Below are positions 14,048 through 25,747 of a stretch of DNA of 30,234 nucleotides, in pieces; the stretch's first letter is position 1; each line of letters begins with the position of its first letter. The notes below the pieces were generated by a model. The model made no database searches. It saw nothing but the letters and a program-made list of their open reading frames with translations, and was not told where the DNA came from. The position numbers and the translations under genes were made by a program. Source of the stretch: Armatimonadota bacterium (lineage in GTDB: Bacteria > Armatimonadota > SYMT01); contig JBKBRF010000066.1 of the NCBI GenBank assembly GCA_046292385.1, positions 1 to 30,234 of the forward strand, in the 5' to 3' direction.

Positions 14048-15316
14048 CTACTCCCCCTCTCTCCGCCCGGTCACCTTTTCGATGAGGGGCTTCGCGCGCT
14101 CCAGCAGGTGCGGCTTGAGCGGCTCCAGGCGAGGTTGGGTGCGCAGGTACTCCTCCAGCGCCTCCAGCGGGGTGAGCTGCGTGGTGAGGCCGCCGTGGCG
14201 GGCGCGGTGCTCCGGGCGGATCACCTCGCGCCGGATCCCGGCCACGTAAGCGGCGCCGTCGAGCGCCTGGCGAACCTCCCGCTCCGGCAGGTTCGGATGG
14301 CCCGGCGCCAGGGTGTAGATGACGCGCACCACCGCCCCCTGGAGCTGGGCCTGCTTCTCCTCGATGGCGGCGCGGACGCTGCCGAGCGGGTCGGCTTCGT
14401 CCGCTTCCACGCGGATCGTCACGAACGGCCGCGGGTTCAGGGGGACCGTCTTCCAGGTAGCCTTCCCGCGGGCAAGCTCCGCCAGCACCGCCACCTTGTC
14501 CTCATGCTCCTCGCCGAAGTCGACCCGCTCGATGCTGCCGGGGTAGATCACCGGCGGCTGCCCGTCGAAGTCGTTCTTGGGAATCGTCTGGAACTGGTGG
14601 ATGTGCGCCAGCGCGACGTAGTCGAAGACCGGATTCCGCACCGCTCCGAGCGGAAGGTCGAGCTCCGGCGCGAGCTGGGCGCCGCGCCCGTAGCCGCCGA
14701 ACTCCGCCCCGGCGATCGTGTAGTGCGCCATCAGCACCGCGGGCGTGGCCGCGCCGCGCCGCACCCGCTCCGCCTCCACGTCTTCCGCCAGCACCCCGAT
14801 CTGCTCGATTAGCTTCTCTCGCATCATGCCGACCACTTCCGGGATCGTCTTCCCCTTCGCGTCGTCGGTGGCGACCAGCCGGCTGCGCGGCATGAACGGA
14901 AGGCCGGCGACCAATACCTCGCCGCGCGCGGTCGGGATCGGCACCACCTCCGGCCGGCGCATCACGTAGACGCCTTCCAGCTCCAGCACGTGGAAGATGT
15001 CGATGCTGCTGGCGCGCGCGAACGCGTTCGGGATGTCGTGGTTGCCGGGGATGATCGCGACCGGCACCCTCCGCGCGACCTTGCGGATGCGAGAGGCGAA
15101 CTCGCGCTGGATCGTCGGGTTCGGATCGCAGTTCTTGTAGATGTCGCCCGGGAAGAGGATGAGGTCCGCCTCCTCCGCCAGCGCCAGCGCGCGGTCGAGC
15201 GCGCCGAGGAAGTCCGCCGTCCGGGTGCCGTAGCCCTTCTCCGGGAGCGGCCGGCCGTACAGCTCCACGCCGAGGTGGACGTCGCCGATATGGAGCACGC
15301 GGATCGGTTCAGCCAT
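14048..15316 (-). CDS. sbcD: Mre11/SbcD-family metallophosphoesterase nuclease
   Basis: LHIGDVHLG, PGDIY, PGNHD, MAHY, YVALAHIH and YPGSIERVDFGE phosphoesterase motifs. Confidence 0.93.
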   Translation of the reverse strand: MAEPIRVLHIGDVHLGVELYGRPLPEKGYGTRTADFLGALDRALALAEEADLILFPGDIYKNCDPNPTIQREFASRIRKVARRVPVAIIPGNHDIPNAFARASSIDIFHVLELEGVYVMRRPEVVPIPTARGEVLVAGLPFMPRSRLVATDDAKGKTIPEVVGMMREKLIEQIGVLAEDVEAERVRRGAATPAVLMAHYTIAGAEFGGYGRGAQLAPELDLPLGAVRNPVFDYVALAHIHQFQTIPKNDFDGQPPVIYPGSIERVDFGEEHEDKVAVLAELARGKATWKTVPLNPRPFVTIRVEADEADPLGSVRAAIEEKQAQLQGAVVRVIYTLAPGHPNLPEREVRQALDGAAYVAGIRREVIRPEHRARHGGLTTQLTPLEALEEYLRTQPRLEPLKPHLLERAKPLIEKVTGRREGE

Positions 15317-15319
15317 ACA

Positions 15320-16939
15320 TCAGTCCCACAGCTCCCGGTCCCGCCGGGCGCGCGCGCTCCGCTCCTCCGCGTCGAGCACGCCCAGGCTCTTCCAGAAGCT
15401 CTCGTCGTAGCTCCGCGTCTTCACCACCACCGGCATCGGCACCGCGTGCCCGAAGATGAGTGACTGCTGCCGCGTGTCGAGGCTCGCCAGCACGCTGCGC
15501 AGCCCGCCCGCGCTGCTGGTGCCGGCGAGGACGGCGTCCACGTCGGCGCTGTCGTCCAGCAGGCAGCAGATCTTGGTCCCGAGCTGCGACAGCACCTCCC
15601 GCTCGATCTGCGACGGGCGCTGGTCGACCACCAGCAGCGTGACCGAGTACTTCCGCAGCTCTCGCGCGATGCGACCGAAGATCGTCTGGTCGGCGATCCC
15701 CGGCTCCAGGAACTTATGCGCCTCTTCGATGGTGATCACCAGCCGCCGCGGGCGCGGGTGCTTGTCCGGCGCGGAGAGCCAGAGCTCCGTCTTCTCCCGC
15801 CACCGCTCGTCGATCCGGCGGGTCAGGATGTTCGCCACCAGGATGTAGTGGAGCAGGCTGCTGTAGCGGCCGAAGTCGATCACCGTGTGGATGCCGCGCT
15901 CCAGGTTGTTCAGGATCAGCGGCACGGCGTCTTCCAGCACCTCCGCATCCGGCTTCAGGAAGCCCTGGCACTCCCGCTGCATCCGGCTCAGCTTGCGCCG
16001 CAACGCCTGCATGGCGCCCTCGTGGGCCTGCTCCTCGCCCGCCACCTCTCCCGCGTCCATCTCCAGCGTCTTCTCGAACCAGTGCTTGCCGAAGCGGCGC
16101 TGCAGCAGGTAGGTGTTCTCCGCCGCCGTGGAGGTAAGGCCGAGGATCTTCTGGAGGCCGAGCAGGTCCTCCGGCTCCAGGAAGCTGTAGGGGATGCGGA
16201 CCTCCCGGTCGGCGCGGACCGATGGCCGCGGGTCGAGCGTGAAGACCTGCACCCGGTCCGGGAAGAGCTGCTTGAGCCCCTTCGTGGTGCCGCCCGGACG
16301 CCCTTCATCCGTGCCCTGCCAGCCGTACTCCCCGTGCATGTCGAAGATCAGGTTCACCGCGTCGGAGCGGCTCGCCAGGCCGCAGAGGACCAGCCGCGTG
16401 AGGAACGTCTTCCCGGTGCCGGACTTCCCGAAGATCCCGTTGCTCCGCTCCGCGAACGCTGCCAGGTTGAGACAGACCGGGATCTCTTCCATCTCCAGCG
16501 GCGCGCCGATGTGGAAGTGGTGCGGGGAGCCCTGCTCGCTCCCGAAGACGCGGTTCACGTCGTCCGGGGAAGCGCGGCGTACTTCCGTAAAGTGGCCGGG
16601 AATCGTTTTAACCGGCAGCAGCGCCTTCGTATCGTCCGGCTCCGCGCGGTCGACCATCAGGTGCGGCCGCAGCACGGCGCGCGCGTAGATGCTCTCCCCC
16701 ACCAGCACCTGCCGCAGCAGCGAGTCTCGCTCCGGGGTCGGCGCGTCGAGTGCCTCCGGCGTGGTCGCGGTGAGCTCCATGTCGGTGATGAGCGACACGA
16801 AGTCGAACTGCTCCCCGCCCGCCACGGCGAACATGCCGGCGCGGAGCTTCTCCAGGGAGACGTCCGGGTCGAGCTTCAGCTCCAGCCCCTTGGAGAGCGA
16901 GCCGCGCACCACCACCCCGAGGTAGTTCGGATCGATCAT
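15320..16939 (-). CDS. herA: HerA-family helicase/ATPase with N-terminal HAS barrel
   Basis: Walker A GKSGTGKT, IFDMHGEY, Walker B ITIEEAHKF, RELRKY (arginine finger) and VDQRPS. Confidence 0.92.
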   Translation of the reverse strand: MIDPNYLGVVVRGSLSKGLELKLDPDVSLEKLRAGMFAVAGGEQFDFVSLITDMELTATTPEALDAPTPERDSLLRQVLVGESIYARAVLRPHLMVDRAEPDDTKALLPVKTIPGHFTEVRRASPDDVNRVFGSEQGSPHHFHIGAPLEMEEIPVCLNLAAFAERSNGIFGKSGTGKTFLTRLVLCGLASRSDAVNLIFDMHGEYGWQGTDEGRPGGTTKGLKQLFPDRVQVFTLDPRPSVRADREVRIPYSFLEPEDLLGLQKILGLTSTAAENTYLLQRRFGKHWFEKTLEMDAGEVAGEEQAHEGAMQALRRKLSRMQRECQGFLKPDAEVLEDAVPLILNNLERGIHTVIDFGRYSSLLHYILVANILTRRIDERWREKTELWLSAPDKHPRPRRLVITIEEAHKFLEPGIADQTIFGRIARELRKYSVTLLVVDQRPSQIEREVLSQLGTKICCLLDDSADVDAVLAGTSSAGGLRSVLASLDTRQQSLIFGHAVPMPVVVKTRSYDESFWKSLGVLDAEERSARARRDRELWD

Positions 16940-17667
16940 GCGTCCTCAAACGGGTCGAGGCTGCGCCGGACCGGGCTCCCGGCGAGCGGTAGGGGCGCTT
17001 CCCAGCCGGGTCCGTTCCCGGCCGGAGGAGCGGCGGAGGGCCGCGCCGGCACGGCCGCGGGGCGGAGCGGGGGGAGCGTCGACGGCGGCGAGACGCGCCG
17101 CAGCACGCCTTCCAGCGTCACGTAGTCGCGAGCCAGGAGCCGCGCCAGGTACTTGCCCCAGGTCACCAGCCGTCCCCCCGCCTCGGGACCCGAGGCATCC
17201 CGGGCGGCGCCGAGCGCGCTGACCAGCAGGTCCTCCAGCGGCACCTCGGTCACCTGCGTCAGCGACCGCAGGAACGACGGGCTCTCCGTCACGGCGCGCA
17301 CGTCCGCCTCCTCCGCCGGGTAGGCGTAGGAGTGGAGCCTCGGCGGCCGCGGTGGGGTCCCGGCCAGCAGCACGTCGCCGGAGCGGTAGCCGACCATCTG
17401 CGCGTGGAACACGGTGCGGAAGAGGGTCGGCAGGTGCGGCTTCTTCTGCTCCAATTCCCCGGGCGGCAGACCGTGCGCCTGCACCAGCCGATTGGAGTCG
17501 AACGGGGCGGTCGAGACCTGCGTCACCACCGCGAAGACGGTGATCTCGCCACCGCTGCAGTCGATCCGCGCGAAGCTCCCGAACGGCGGCGCGCAGTAGA
17601 GCTTGTGGCACTGAATCTCCAGGAGCTGGGATTCGGATCGGATTACTTCGCCAAGCGCGTCGGGCAT
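16936..17667 (-). CDS. Stand-alone HAS-barrel domain protein
   Basis: LGEVI..QC...APPFGSF..VFAVV and GTPPRPPRLHS match the HAS-barrel pattern. It overlaps herA by ATGA and has a Pro-rich tail. Confidence 0.8.
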   Translation of the reverse strand: MPDALGEVIRSESQLLEIQCHKLYCAPPFGSFARIDCSGGEITVFAVVTQVSTAPFDSNRLVQAHGLPPGELEQKKPHLPTLFRTVFHAQMVGYRSGDVLLAGTPPRPPRLHSYAYPAEEADVRAVTESPSFLRSLTQVTEVPLEDLLVSALGAARDASGPEAGGRLVTWGKYLARLLARDYVTLEGVLRRVSPPSTLPPLRPAAVPARPSAAPPAGNGPGWEAPLPLAGSPVRRSLDPFEDA

Positions 17668-17719
17668 GCTCTACCTCTAGTGGTGTGTCCGGCTACGTCT
17701 GATGCGTGGGGACCGGAAC

Positions 17720-17808
17720 CAGGTTAACAGGTTGCAGGTTTGCAAGTTGCAGGTTCCGAACCCGGCTGCCGAGGTGGCCAACTTGCAACCTGCCAACTTG
17801 CCCACCTG
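17720..17808. repeat. Inverted tandem heptamer-repeat element within the nurA cluster
   Basis: The left arm has CAGGTTG/CAAGTTG-type units. The right arm has the complementary CAACTTG/CAACCTG-type units. Confidence 0.8.
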
Positions 17809-17855
17809 AAGCTCGCCCGCGCTCCCGGGCGACAGTCACCCATCGATCTCGCCCA

Positions 17856-19091
17856 TCAGGCCAGGGGGCGCTGCTTGCTGACTGCCTTGGCGGAGTAGGC
17901 GGCGGTGTAGAAGCCGTGGTCGTTCAGGACGCGCTCCACCAGGGCGTAGAACTCCGTGCGGTCCGGGCCTCGCACCACCGCCTGCTCGTGCGCTTCGGAG
18001 AGCACCATCGGGTAGCCGTTCCCGTTCTCGCACTGGTCCGCCAGCACCCCGTGCAGCCGCCCCAGGAGCGCTTCGTTCTGCCAGACCCAGCCCGGCACCT
18101 CCACGCGAGCGATCTCGGTGCCGGTATTCAGGTAGAAGAAGCCGGCGGCGTCGTTCCCGCCGGTGAGCTGCTCCCAGTCTTCCGACTTCAGCTCCAGCAC
18201 CTGCGTGCGGTAGTACCGCTCCGGTATCAGCCGCTCCGCTACGTGCACGTCGGTCAGGCCGGCCAGCCCGGCGTGGTGAGCGTCCGGATTCGGCGCCGCG
18301 TACCGGCTCAGGAAGTCTTTCTTGCACTTTGCGCAAAGCGCGCCTCGGACCGGCACGTCCGGGCAGAGGCTCAGGCGGAGCAGCGTGATCCAGGCGACGG
18401 CCCGGGAGCGGCTGATGTACCCCGCCACCAGCGTCTGCTTCCGGTGGCACGCCTCCAGCAAGTCCTGAAAGAGATCGAGTAAGAAGCGGGCATCGGGTCG
18501 CTCTCGCAGCTCCTGGATCATCCGCCACTGGACCAGCGGCCCGTCGAGCAGCAGCACCGTGCGGCCGGGATCCGCCTCCTCGCGCACCAGGTCGCGCGCG
18601 CACGCCAGCTCCGCTTCCAGCCGGTCCAGCTCCACCCTCCCGGTCACCGAGGCCGCGGAGGCGCGGGCATCCGCCTCCCGGTCCGGCTCGGCGGCGGCGC
18701 GCTTCGGCGGCAGGAGGCGCGGCACGGAGAGGAGCCGGCACCGGTCTCGCCCCTCCGGGGCGCCGTAGCGCAGCACCACCCCACCCGCGTTCACCACGTA
18801 CCAGGGCGCTACGTGGTGGTAGTCCGGCACGACCTGGGAGCCGTCGGTCGCGATGACGGTGTAGTCCCCGGCCGGCGGCGCGGGATAGGTCTCCCGCATG
18901 TCCCGCCCCTCGGCGGGCAGTGCCATGCTCTGACGGAGCTCCTGGACGGCCTCCCGCAGGCGCGGCATCCCCGCGGCCTCGGCGACCTGCTCCACGGCCT
19001 GCTGCTGACGGTCGAGCGTGTCCTGCGCGCTGCGCACCACCTCTTCCGCCAGTCCATGCATCTCCCCAACCAGGGCTTCCAGGTCCAGCAC
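17856..19091 (-). CDS. nurA: NurA-family DNA double-strand break repair nuclease
   Basis: Motifs IATDGSQ, LLDGPL, GYISRSR, RVEVPGW and GYPMVLSEAHEQAVV. GTG start with RBS GGGGGAG. Confidence 0.92.
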   Translation of the reverse strand: MLDLEALVGEMHGLAEEVVRSAQDTLDRQQQAVEQVAEAAGMPRLREAVQELRQSMALPAEGRDMRETYPAPPAGDYTVIATDGSQVVPDYHHVAPWYVVNAGGVVLRYGAPEGRDRCRLLSVPRLLPPKRAAAEPDREADARASAASVTGRVELDRLEAELACARDLVREEADPGRTVLLLDGPLVQWRMIQELRERPDARFLLDLFQDLLEACHRKQTLVAGYISRSRAVAWITLLRLSLCPDVPVRGALCAKCKKDFLSRYAAPNPDAHHAGLAGLTDVHVAERLIPERYYRTQVLELKSEDWEQLTGGNDAAGFFYLNTGTEIARVEVPGWVWQNEALLGRLHGVLADQCENGNGYPMVLSEAHEQAVVRGPDRTEFYALVERVLNDHGFYTAAYSAKAVSKQRPLA

Positions 19092-19220: not shown

Positions 19221-19634
19221 TCAGGCGCGGCCCGCGGAAGCGGCGGAATCGGCCGCGGCGCGCTCCGTCTCGCCGTCCGCCGGGGCGGGGTCGAGCTCGT
19301 CCGCGGGGTAGCTCTCGATGTCGAAGGCGCCCTCGAGCTGGACCAGCCGGAGCGTCCGCTCGGCGCGGCAGCCTTCCCGAACCGCCAGGCGCAAGCCGAT
19401 GCCGCGCGCTGCCAGCCGTGCCTGAAGCCGCATGAGCCACCGGATGCCGTCGCTGTCCACGTAGTCTGCCGGACCGAGGTCGAGGCAGAGGCTGCGGCAG
19501 CCGCCGCGGAGCAGCCGCGCCACGCGCTCCTCGAAGTGAGGAATCGTCTCGCGGTTGACGGCGCCGACCAGCCGCGCGAACGCGGTGGCGCCGTCCCGGT
19601 AGGCAAGAGCTGTGGGCATTTCGTGCTGCGGCAT
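19221..19634 (-). CDS. STAS-domain anti-sigma factor antagonist
   Basis: ARLVGAVNRET..F, LCLDLGPADYVDSDGIRWL and RTLRLVQL. RBS AAGGAG precedes ATG 19634. Confidence 0.88.
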   Translation of the reverse strand: MPQHEMPTALAYRDGATAFARLVGAVNRETIPHFEERVARLLRGGCRSLCLDLGPADYVDSDGIRWLMRLQARLAARGIGLRLAVREGCRAERTLRLVQLEGAFDIESYPADELDPAPADGETERAAADSAASAGRA

Positions 19635-19744
19635 GCTTGGCTCCTTACTGTCTCTGGCCGGACACTCGCTGCATGTATAGCGGCAGCGGTGTCGCTTCAA
19701 AACGCGGTCCCATTTCCACCTGCTCCGGAGCCCCCAGAAACCAC

Positions 19745-19771
19745 GAAAAGCCACGACCTCTCGTCGTGGCT
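19745..19771 (-). terminator. Intrinsic terminator, likely the riboswitch expression platform
   Basis: Minus strand AGCCACGAC-GAGAG-GTCGTGGCT followed by TTTCGTGGTTT. Confidence 0.75.
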
Positions 19772-19835
19772 CGAAGAAAACCGGGCTGGCAGCAGGCGGA
19801 CGCGTCCGCGGAGCCGCAGCAAAGCTGCTCTTCGG

Positions 19836-19946
19836 CCACGCTTACGAGGTTAGCTGACGGGCTTGGGCTCGAAGATGCCCCGGACCTTCCGGTCCTGCGC
19901 CCCAGTCTGGTGGGTCCCCCGCTTCCCCGAAGGGAATTGAGCGTTA
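19836..19946 (-). ncRNA. Cyclic di-AMP riboswitch (ydaO/yuaA class)
   Basis: The minus strand reads ACGCTCAAT..GGGAAGCGGGGGACCCA..GGGGCGCA..CTTCGAGCCCAAGCCCGTCAGCTAACCTCGTAAGCGT. It has the hallmark 3' CCCGTCAGCTAACCTCGTA segment and a P1 of ACGCT/AGCGT. Confidence 0.92.
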
Positions 19947-20024
19947 GTTTGTTGGAATGGTGTTCGACACCCGGGCGCCCGCCTCCTTCTCCAAGAGTCG
20001 ATCAGAGGGCGGATTTCCAGGCCC

Positions 20025-23755: not shown

Positions 23756-24604
23756 ATGCACTCTTCTAACCGTCCCGCTCACCGCCGCGGCTTCACCCTG
23801 ATCGAGCTGCTCGTGGTGATCGCGATCATCGCCATCCTCGCGTCGATCCTCTTCCCGGTCTTCGCCCAGGCCCGCGAGGCAGCCCGAAAGGCCTCCTGCA
23901 CGTCCAACATGCGGCAGATCGGCATGGGGATCACGATGTACACGCAGGACCACGACGAGACGCTGCCGTTCGCGGCGTGGAACCCGCCCGGCCAGCCGCT
24001 GGTGATGTGGTACGACCTGATCGAGCCGTACGTGAAGTCCGGCACCGGCGGCGTCATCACCCCGTCCGGGGGCGGCGCGGGCCGGAAGCAGGCGACGTTC
24101 TACGTCTGCCCCAGCTTCCGGAACGACTCGGTGCCGGCGCGGCCGGGCGACCCGGCCCCCCATTCTTTCCCCGCCGCGCAACTCGACCCGGCGATGAGCT
24201 ATGCCGCCAACGGGAACCTGATGCCGATGATGCACAACCGGTTCGTGGGCGTCACCTTCCCCGGCGCCATCACCACGCTCGCGCAGATCAACGCCCCCGC
24301 GCAGGTGGTCCTCGCCGCGCACGCCCGCGGCGTTCGCCCCGCCATCGCCGGCGATGACGTCACCTCCGGCTGCACCGGCGACGAAGCCGGCTACCCACCC
24401 ACCGGCAACCCGGCGATCTCCGGCGCCAGCGTCTACTGCTCCGCCCGCTACCGGCACAACGGCGGCTCCGTCTACCTGATGGCGGACGGCCACGCGAAGT
24501 GGTTCCGCGGTCCCGGCGCCTCCTGGCGGGACACCAGTACCGCCGGCGTAGCATGGAAGAAGAGCCTGGCGCCGAACGCCGCCGCCTGGTTCCGCGAAGA
24601 CTGA
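23756..24604 (+). CDS. DUF1559-type prepilin N-terminal cleavage/methylation protein with H-X9-DG motif
   Basis: [42 protein letters not shown] and [25 protein letters not shown]. Confidence 0.93.
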
Positions 24605-24639: not shown

Positions 24640-25644
24640 ATGCACACGCTCCACCTGGCAGCCGCGGCCACGCTCCTCGCAGCGGGCACCGCCGCGGCCG
24701 CCCCGAAATCCAAGCCGGCGCTCCGGCCGGTGACCGTCTCCGCCGCGCAGGAGGCGAGCCTTCAGCGCCACCTGCAGGCGGAGCTGCCGACCGTCTTCGT
24801 CTTCCTGCGCCCCGACAGCTCCGTGGAACGGGAGTTCCTCGCCGAGATCCAGGGCGAGGCGAAGGACCGGGTCGGCCTCCGCGTGGTCCACGTTCGCACC
24901 GGGCGCGAGCCGCTGGTGCGCCAGTACGACGTCAAAGAGACGCCGACCGCCATCATCTACGACCGCCGCGGCCGCGTGACCGGCCGCAGCTCCCAGCCCG
25001 CGGAGATCCGCGCCGCCCTCCAGAAGGCGGCCGGGGTGATGCGGATCGACTGGGCAGAAGAAGGCGACCCGCGGATGGACCAGGTCGAGCGGATCCTGGG
25101 ACGCCGCGCCGCCCCCGGCATCCTGCGCACGATGAGCCTGAAGCCCGAATACATGGCGCTGGTCAACGAGCTGGCCGGCCGGGCTCACTTCTCGGACGGG
25201 TTCCTGGACCGGCGGACGAAGGAGCTGATCGCCACCTACGTCTCCGCTCTCAACGAGTGCAAGTATTGAGTGGGCTCGCACGCGCGCTTCCTGCAGTTGC
25301 AGGGCCAGAACCCCGAAGAAGTGGATCTCGTTGGACAGGCAGACCTGGAGAACGCCAAGCTCCCCGAAAAGGAGCGGGCTCTCCTCGATTTCGTGAAGGT
25401 GCTGACGCTGGAGCCGGCGAAGACGCAGGACTCGCACGTGGAGCGGCTGCGTAAAGTCGGCTACACGGACGAGCAGATCTTCGAAGCCTCCTTCATCACG
25501 GCGCTCTTCGCCTTCTTCAACCGGATGGCGGACGCCTACGGCCTCGACTACCCGGCGAACGGCTGGATGCCTCCGTCGATCCGCGAGAGCCGCGGCGCGG
25601 CGGAGCCTCCGCCCGCCCCGGCGCCGCAGGCCGCCCCCCGCTGA
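24640..25644 (+). CDS. Putative selenoprotein (334 aa): signal peptide, thioredoxin-like domain and AhpD/CMD peroxidase-like domain with CxxU
   Basis: ORFs 24640-25269 and 25270-25644 are in frame and separated only by TGA (25267-25269). Readthrough gives KELIATYVSALNECKY-U-VGSH, where U sits at the second Cys of the AhpD CxxC..H motif. Confidence 0.87.
25289..25304 (+). promoter_or_regulatory. Candidate bacterial SECIS apical hairpin
   Basis: UCCUGC-AGUU-GCAGGG. The loop begins 26 nt after the UGA and contains GU at positions 2-3. Confidence 0.6.
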
Positions 25645-25672
25645 GGCGAGCCCGGCAGTCCCGGCACCCTGG

Positions 25673-25702
25673 ACCTCCCCGTCACCGCGGGGAGGTTTTT
25701 TT
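25673..25702 (+). terminator. Intrinsic terminator after the selenoprotein gene
   Basis: ACCTCCCCG-TCACCG-CGGGGAGGT followed by TTTTTT. Confidence 0.9.
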
Positions 25703-25747
25703 GTTGCGTTCGATCCGGCCCGCGTACCCGTCCGGATCCCCACCCGT

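Follow-up and report, generated by a model that had tools for sequence, protein, structure and literature searches.

An AhpD-like gene divided by an in-frame TGA in an Armatimonadota bacterium very probably encodes a CxxU selenoprotein with an N-terminal thioredoxin-fold domain

Organization of the locus and its interrupted reading frame

The window analyzed here is a stretch of 30,234 nucleotides from an Armatimonadota bacterium (GTDB lineage Bacteria; Armatimonadota; SYMT01), comprising positions 1 to 30,234 of the forward strand of contig JBKBRF010000066.1 in GenBank assembly GCA_046292385.1. Its subject is a plus-strand gene at 24640–25644 that encodes an AhpD-like protein and carries a UGA codon within its active-site motif, where selenocysteine (Sec; U) is the candidate residue. 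Conventionally read, the region holds two abutting open reading frames (ORFs). The first (24640–25269; 209 amino acids) terminates with the residues S-A-L-N-E-C-K-Y followed by TGA at 25267–25269, and the second (25270–25644; 124 amino acids) starts in the same frame at the codon directly after this TGA, a GTG at 25270. The TGA is the sole internal stop of the gene and occupies the second position of the motif C207-K-Y-U210-V-G-S-H214. When it is read through, the gene comprises 334 codons before a terminal TGA stop at 25642–25644, yielding a 334-residue product with U210 at the CxxU position.

Both halves of the gene look coding-like in their shared frame, with third-codon-position G+C contents of 0.92 and 0.88 respectively in a window of 69.6% G+C. 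The carboxymuconolactone decarboxylase (CMD) domain of Pfam (PF02627; E-value 8.8e-21, 74.1 bits against a cut-off of 23) spans residues 169–230 and thus runs across the TGA. An intrinsic terminator follows the gene on the plus strand (25671–25708), with a 12-pair stem at 25671–25698 that includes seven G-C pairs and precedes a run of T residues. These observations agree with a preliminary description of the same DNA, which had noted two in-frame ORFs split by a single TGA at the second cysteine of the AhpD/CMD motif, a second half that continues the fold of the first and lacks a ribosome-binding site, and a strong terminator at the gene end. With respect to the ribosome-binding site, no Shine-Dalgarno-like sequence is seen before GTG 25270; this is a weak argument, because the start codon of the entire gene, ATG 24640, also lacks a strong one, a point that counts to some extent against the reading as a single expressed gene.

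Conservation of the TGA codon

Homologues were sought through six-frame searches in which stops were read through, first in 41 related genomes and subsequently in a phylum-wide sample of 301. Matches at E ≤ 1e-30 were obtained in 20 of the 301 genomes and, among the 30 matches listed, 22 span both domains of the query. This set of 22 two-domain homologues (43–63% identity) is the basis of the protein alignment reported below. At the U210 column, TGA stands in 19 of the 22, which derive from several GTDB families, whereas three have a cysteine codon (TGC or TGT): G228, G300 and, in G031, a tandem paralogue. The same column contains TGA in all seven single-domain relatives with a CPYU motif and in all eight of the distant CFYU/CHYU relatives that were located. 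Pairing of TGA with Cys at this codon, which the preliminary description had proposed looking for, is therefore found, and the contrary outcome that it had envisaged, in which close homologues would all carry Cys codons, is not seen. The three Cys forms do not group together in a maximum-likelihood tree but fall at three separate places among the Sec forms.

Conservation also extends beyond the TGA. Residues F290, F292, N294, R295, M296, G301, L302 and Y304 are invariant in the 22-row alignment, and conservation of this strength would be surprising after a genuine stop. The source genome itself contains three AhpD-like genes with TGA at the CxxU position: the gene under study (on contig C66), a second two-domain gene (C2:119122–120027; motif CKFU, 61% identity) with a DUF1559 gene upstream, and a single-domain gene (C5:193728–194348; motif CPYU) followed by a hairpin with a GGUC loop.

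Two arrangements in other genomes are of separate interest. G031 carries the two-domain gene as a tandem pair (C1:1467983–1469732), with one copy in the Sec form and the other in the Cys form, an arrangement that could allow a selenium-dependent choice between them. In G062 (contig C33), ~1.4 kb downstream of the two-domain gene, there is another AhpD-related gene whose C-H-Y-U-I-E-S-H motif includes a TGA, such that two selenoprotein genes of related families are neighbours.

Family, fold and active site of the C-terminal domain

The all-helical AhpD/CMD domain is encoded at 25069–25593 on the plus strand (residues 144–318) and contains the predicted active-site residues E195, C207, Y209, U210 and H214. 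On profile scores, the product is assigned to the AhpD-like CxxU selenoprotein family of TIGR01926 (‘peroxidase-related enzyme’ in NCBIfam; 93.2 bits against a cut-off of 81.8), and it also matches the AhpD core domain TIGR00778 (56.4 bits against 27.8). Two more specific assignments were rejected. The score for true AhpD (TIGR00777) is 22.1 bits against a cut-off of 191.95, on which ground the product is not regarded as an AhpD orthologue, and membership of NF041238 (AhpD_rel_CFYUT) fails at 67.5 bits against 175, the motif here being CKYUV. NF041238, known as ‘hypothetical protein 1’ from the Sargasso Sea and described by a 357-position profile, is likewise an AhpD-related CxxU selenoprotein with an N-terminal extension, and relatives in the same phylum carry TGA in the same column; the present product differs from it in having CKYUVGSH rather than CFYU(T/V/I)ESH and in the distance of the hairpin.

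With the 22-row alignment as input, AlphaFold2 gave a model with a mean predicted local distance difference test score (pLDDT) of 85.9. This model contains helices over residues 144–318, mostly at pLDDT 88–98 and at 96–98 around the active site. The best structural matches found by Foldseek are 6k40, 2prr, 2oyo, 3c1l and 2pfx (E-values 1.5e-10 to 3.4e-08; template modeling (TM) scores by target 0.72–0.79), with Bmp8, a debrominase, and smaller AhpD-like proteins coming next. Solved relatives were also recovered by a profile search of PDB sequences, at E-values of 1.3e-29 to 4.3e-26, including 2prr (1.3e-29) and 6k40 (3.2e-28), with the motif aligned column for column to NQCLYCVVAH in 2prr and NRCVYCAVSH in 6k40 and the alignment reaching residue 306. 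These solved relatives (the alkyl hydroperoxide reductase AhpD of Deinococcus radiodurans, 6k40, and the peroxidase-related proteins 2prr, 2oyo, 3c1l and 2pfx) share the fold, but have Cys at the Sec position, lack the N-terminal domain and are just 23–27% identical.

Residues E195, C207, U/C210 and H214 are invariant across the 22 rows. The spacing of E195/C207/Y209/U210/H214 is identical to that of the proton relay described for AhpD of Mycobacterium tuberculosis (E118/C130/H132/C133/H137) and for PA0269 of Pseudomonas aeruginosa (E36/C48/Y50/C51/H55; PMC3141380). Further indication of which residue matters most comes from database homologues, of which the best 120 of 163 matches were compared. 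Eleven full-length proteins among these have an SxxC motif, in which the first cysteine is missing and only the Sec-equivalent position is kept (P0061, P0070, P0071, P0075, P0078, P0080, P0094, P0099, P0116, P0120 and P0122; 343–383 amino acids). The existence of these natural forms suggests that the second motif position, occupied by Sec in the present protein, is the indispensable one. No AhpC partner gene is found close by within the window.

The candidate SECIS hairpin

The candidate selenocysteine insertion sequence (SECIS) is a plus-strand hairpin at 25289–25304, UCCUGC-AGUU-GCAGGG, that consists of six pairs, including one U-G, around a four-nucleotide loop. It is positioned 20–35 nucleotides after the TGA, with a spacing of 25 nucleotides from UGA to loop and an energy of -7.8 kcal/mol, and its AGUU loop has G at position 2 followed by U. 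It corresponds to the hairpin with a GU-containing loop that had been pointed out in the sequence beforehand. The published model of bacterial SECIS elements specifies a loop of 3–9 nucleotides, a stem of 4–16 base pairs, G in one of the first two loop positions, a distance of 16–37 nucleotides from the UGA and a minimum free energy of ≤ -7.5 kcal/mol (PMC13188914), and the hairpin agrees with this model in every one of these respects.

Several statistics nevertheless weigh against placing much confidence in this single structure. In the window, 89 of 540 TGA triplets (16.5%) precede a hairpin that passes the same generic constraints. The 74-nucleotide stretch is also no more stable than shuffled versions of itself (z = +0.84), with 164 of 200 shuffles folding at least equally well. 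Given this rate of chance occurrence in a window of 70% G+C and the lack of excess stability, the hairpin alone is weak evidence, and weight was consequently placed on comparison across homologues.

This comparison is more favourable. In an alignment of 26 Sec genes, 91.7% of cells are paired, as compared to 30.8–62.8% when the 3' arm is slid by one to three columns, and 23 of the 26 retain the hairpin at a constant distance from the UGA. G062 keeps pair 2 as U-A by way of two synonymous changes (CTG to TTG and CAG to CAA), and G244 has a U-G intermediate at this pair. The stem is retained despite a change of residues from Q-L to R-S in four two-domain and six single-domain genes, in which the loop becomes GGUC, and it is likewise retained in G001 with a change from Q to A and a five-nucleotide loop. 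Among the three Cys forms, the hairpin is absent from two and the third has a 4-bp remnant with an AAAU loop that contains no G. Synonymous codon identity peaks in this region, at residues 207–223 (0.70–0.75): identity of codons for the same residue averages 0.477 over 156 informative columns of the gene, nine of the twelve best five-column windows fall in residues 205–223 (0.68–0.75), and Q219 and L220 reach 1.0.

Other features of the same alignment speak against the hairpin or dilute its support. Double-sided changes occur at just one stem pair, and 60 of 500 shuffles attain the covariation score, which is not significant, such that formal covariation support for the stem is weak. Three of the four cells with double changes belong to genes (G198, G087 and G293) that have a different best hairpin, shifted 5' and bearing a GUU loop, which resembles the hairpin of the CFYU group; G062 is the only clean compensatory case. 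Conservation at the nucleotide level is also partly confounded by protein constraint, because the stem overlaps the conserved L-Q-L-Q-G.

These observations define the best-surviving alternative, in which the Sec codon is real and the functional SECIS is larger than, or different from, the 16-nucleotide hairpin, for instance including an upstream stem at 25268–25289. The minimum-free-energy fold does contain such a second stem right after the UGA, G198, G087, G293 and the CFYU group use the 5'-shifted GUU-loop hairpin, and the chance frequency of generic hairpins lends this possibility some further credit. It is nonetheless considered improbable. The 25289–25304 hairpin is the element held at a fixed distance from the UGA in most Sec genes and coincides with the highest synonymous conservation, and either it or the G of its loop is gone in Cys forms.

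Selenocysteine decoding genes of the source genome

The source genome (7.04 Mb, 91 contigs, 98.45% complete) carries all four genes for Sec decoding that the preliminary description had named, and each scores above its cut-off; an absence of this machinery would have counted against Sec. Those found are selA (C11:88809–89894; 486.8 bits, above the curated cut-off), selB (C16:4680–6554; 367.5 bits against 242.25), selD (C11:87691–88614; 362.3 bits, above the curated cut-off) and selC, which encodes tRNA-Sec (C11:87438–87532; 66.6 bits against a gathering threshold of 47). ARAGORN likewise calls this last gene as tRNA-SeC with a TCA (UCA) anticodon.

The selD gene itself has one in-frame TGA, in the motif K-C-G-G-U, followed by a hairpin (GGCGCAG-GUG-CUGCGCC) whose loop starts 33 nucleotides downstream. 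This hairpin is a second SECIS-type element in the source genome, and its loop likewise contains GU. The selD gene is itself a selenoprotein gene, located in a selA-selD-tRNA-Sec cluster on C11 that is followed by a tRNA-Ala gene, with selB apart on C16.

Interpretation of the in-frame TGA

It is very probable that 24640–25644 is a single gene for a 334-residue AhpD-like selenoprotein (TIGR01926, CxxU) and that the hairpin directs insertion of Sec at the UGA. The preliminary description had arrived at one 334-residue Sec protein, a proposal now supported by the conservation of the TGA, the hairpin, the sel genes and the family assignment.

Were the locus instead to hold two separate genes, one for a 209-residue protein stopping at the TGA and another for a 124-residue protein initiated at GTG 25270, it would yield exactly what standard ORF calling delivers, and public gene calls do end at the TGA. 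This arrangement is very improbable, given that the CMD domain, the alignments to solved structures and the structural model all continue through the TGA, that a stop would sever the active-site motif between Y209 and H214, and that the Cys forms are single full-length proteins; the missing Shine-Dalgarno-like sequence before GTG 25270 points in the same direction. There is hardly any likelihood that the gene is a pseudogene or that the TGA is a strain-specific nonsense mutation or a sequencing error. Although the TGA is one base away from the Cys codons TGC and TGT, it recurs in the same column across most homologues of several GTDB families and in two paralogues of the same genome, and both the protein sequence and the third-position G+C are conserved downstream. 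The idea that the TGA is decoded otherwise, either under a reassigned code (as Trp or Gly) or by near-cognate read-through without Sec, has one database homologue with Gly at the site in its favour (CRYG; P0016) and can be given almost no credence, since the same gene terminates with TGA at 25642–25644, Cys is the residue that alternates with TGA, the genome has the full set of Sec machinery and the gene has a SECIS-type hairpin.

If the gene is expressed as a selenoprotein, its decoding and activity may be pictured from established bacterial Sec biology. SelB carrying Sec-tRNA(Sec) would bind the hairpin during translation, and the hairpin-bound SelB would bring about insertion of Sec at UGA 25267–25269 in place of termination. 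The product would consist, in order, of a signal-peptide-like N-terminus that probably leads to export, a cysteine-free thioredoxin-fold domain and the all-helical AhpD/CMD domain. In the latter, the selenolate of U210 would attack an oxidized substrate. Candidate substrates include hydroperoxides and the sulfenic acids or disulfides of partner proteins, for example of peroxiredoxins. C207 would then resolve the adduct as a selenenylsulfide, which a reductant would subsequently re-reduce.

The N-terminal region

The N-terminus (residues 1 to ~21, MHTLHLAAAATLLAAGTAAAA; 24640–24702 on the plus strand) resembles a signal peptide, and a hydrophobic stretch typical of such peptides is present in 17 of the 22 homologues. 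The protein is thus likely to be exported, as far as can be judged from the sequence. Residues 1–18 are disordered in the model (pLDDT < 50). Running counter to export as a general property, the hydrophobic N-terminus is absent in five of the 22 homologues, all of which belong to the group of G031, G018, G233 and G192.

The N-terminal domain (residues 31–131; 24730–25032 on the plus strand) is modelled with a beta-alpha-beta-alpha-beta-beta-alpha order that fits the thioredoxin fold. Foldseek matches it to Trx1 (6esx), YbbN (3qou) and designed thioredoxins (based on 1r26), with E-values of 3e-4 to 5.5e-4 and TM scores by target of 0.61–0.66. Against this assignment, thioredoxin profiles remain below their cut-offs on this domain (Pfam Thioredoxin_2, 17.1 against 27; TrxC, 18.2 against 125). 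The thioredoxin CxxC motif is not found in the domain, its place being taken by P-D-S-S-V, and none of the 22 rows has Cys at that position or elsewhere in the domain. A T-P-T loop resembling the cis-proline loop is conserved. P102, D108 and R109 are invariant in the 22 rows, and S60 and E63 nearly so. Residues 22–206 contain no Cys; outside the signal-like region, C207 and U210 are the sole Cys and Sec residues of the protein.

This domain appears to be rare and essentially confined to its fusion with an AhpD-like domain. When residues 30–140 alone were searched against 1.84 billion cluster representatives, 38 proteins matched at E ≤ 1e-3, 24 of them at ≤ 1e-10. Twelve of the 38 end in N-x-C-x-x and six are full-length proteins with CxxCxxxH, the rest being mostly short fragments or weak matches. 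Two matches of this search are apparently repeat-driven, namely P0123 (3486 amino acids, 26 stretches) and P0133 (531 amino acids, nine stretches).

Genomic neighbourhood and the DUF1559 gene

Directly upstream, on the plus strand at 23756–24604, lies a gene for a 282-residue DUF1559 protein (PF07596 and PF07963) with a prepilin-type N-terminal methylation motif. It ends 35 nucleotides before the start codon of the selenoprotein gene, and a gene for an ATP-dependent DNA ligase is located further upstream. An orthologue of this DUF1559 gene (57–74% identity) is found directly upstream on the same strand in seven of 20 homologous loci, among them a Cys-form locus (G300) and the paralogous C2 locus. 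The source genome has 43 DUF1559 matches, and the recurring neighbour is therefore a specific orthologue rather than a random member of the family. Four cysteines are invariant in eight DUF1559 orthologues. Trees built separately for the two proteins each join the C2 copy to that of G005b with strong support (100/99 and 99/98), from which it follows that the two genes were duplicated and passed on together. As a qualification, most of the DUF1559-linked loci derive from one GTDB family and so do not constitute independent observations. The DUF1559 gene is best viewed as a conserved neighbour that may share an operon with the selenoprotein gene and may be functionally linked to it. One paper was found to mention both DUF1559 and selenoproteins and, so far as its text was available, does so in unrelated sections.

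The other recurring neighbour, a divergently oriented NUDIX/NADH-pyrophosphatase-like gene present at three loci of one family, was set aside as a functional neighbour, its recurrence being taken as shared ancestry. Downstream of the selenoprotein gene, beyond the terminator, is a gene for a TerC-family membrane protein, ahead of which an Rfam scan detected no riboswitch at the gathering threshold.

The sole Rfam match in the window is a cyclic di-AMP riboswitch (RF00379) on the minus strand at 19824–19953 (80 bits; gathering threshold 38). It lies upstream of a minus-strand ORF (19221–19754) with a STAS domain, an unusual-looking target for this riboswitch class. A co-directional minus-strand cluster at 14048–19091 encodes NurA (17856–19091), a 243-residue ORF without a Pfam match (16936–17667), a HerA-type helicase (DUF87; 15320–16939) and a calcineurin-like phosphoesterase (14048–15316). 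This is a bacterial HerA-NurA set, possibly with a role in DNA-end processing or defence.

Annotation in databases and relation to known selenoproteins

The 209-residue product of the gene is on public record as a separate protein, and truncation at this codon is widespread. Among the best 120 of the 163 database matches, 95 end in N-x-C-x-x, one codon before the TGA (CKY, 64; CKF, 17; CRY, 10; CRF, 4), and most of these cut entries are named ‘hypothetical protein’. The preliminary description had anticipated that annotation pipelines would divide the gene, and public gene calls do stop at the TGA. Thirteen of the same 120 are full-length with CxxCxxxH, with the remainder comprising the eleven SxxC proteins discussed above and the single protein with Gly at the site. 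The few entries with a more specific name, which come from Armatimonadota metagenome-assembled genomes, are called ‘peroxidase-related enzyme’ or ‘carboxymuconolactone decarboxylase family protein’.

The existence of Sec-containing AhpD/CMD proteins, taken as established in the preliminary description, has been in print since 2005, when 27 AhpD-like CxxU sequences were reported from the Sargasso Sea (PMC1088965). In the Global Ocean Sampling data of 2008, AhpD-like 1 had 299 Sec and 902 Cys forms and was among the most abundant selenoprotein families (PMC2398784). A 2026 review has the entry ‘AhpD-like protein, TIGR01926, CxxU’ (PMC13188914), and BSepDB includes AhpD-like as a family (PMC13326102). 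The gene at 24640–25644 has the properties of this family (TIGR01926/COG2128; ‘AhpD-like 1’), with CxxU in the corresponding position of the shared helical domain, Sec/Cys pairs and a SECIS just 3' of the UGA. It differs in architecture: the solved and profile-defining members are single-domain proteins of ~180–200 residues, whereas the product of this gene adds the signal-peptide-like N-terminus and a 100-residue cysteine-free thioredoxin-fold domain. In the literature on the family, so far as its text was available, no mention was found of a fusion to a cysteine-free thioredoxin-fold domain or of a DUF1559 partner, and both are presented here as leads rather than results.

Implications

A tentative extension, and one more likely to prove wrong than right by a wide measure, is that the two-domain form is a distinct, lineage-restricted extracytoplasmic module, in which an exported selenoenzyme uses its cysteine-free thioredoxin-fold domain for docking or for holding substrates and works with the upstream DUF1559 prepilin-like protein, envisaged as a surface or periplasmic protein, for example by keeping it reduced or repairing its oxidation. 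This suggestion is based on the inheritance of the gene pair as a unit, the four invariant cysteines of the DUF1559 protein and the rarity of the N-terminal domain. If true, it would give a first clue to the function of any protein in the very large DUF1559 family, as well as a new pairing of a selenoprotein with a client.

The main value of the present finding lies in annotation, in that it recovers a missed gene of a known family rather than new biology. With the 209-residue record and 95 of the best 120 relatives all truncated at this codon, current annotation under-counts the selenoproteins of this Armatimonadota lineage. To a family known since 2005 the gene adds little biologically; the modest extra is its architecture, with a product that is probably exported and has a thioredoxin-fold domain free of cysteine, next to a DUF1559 gene inherited along with it. 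This architecture offers a testable lead on the function of one branch of AhpD-like selenoproteins, and perhaps on that of one DUF1559 protein.

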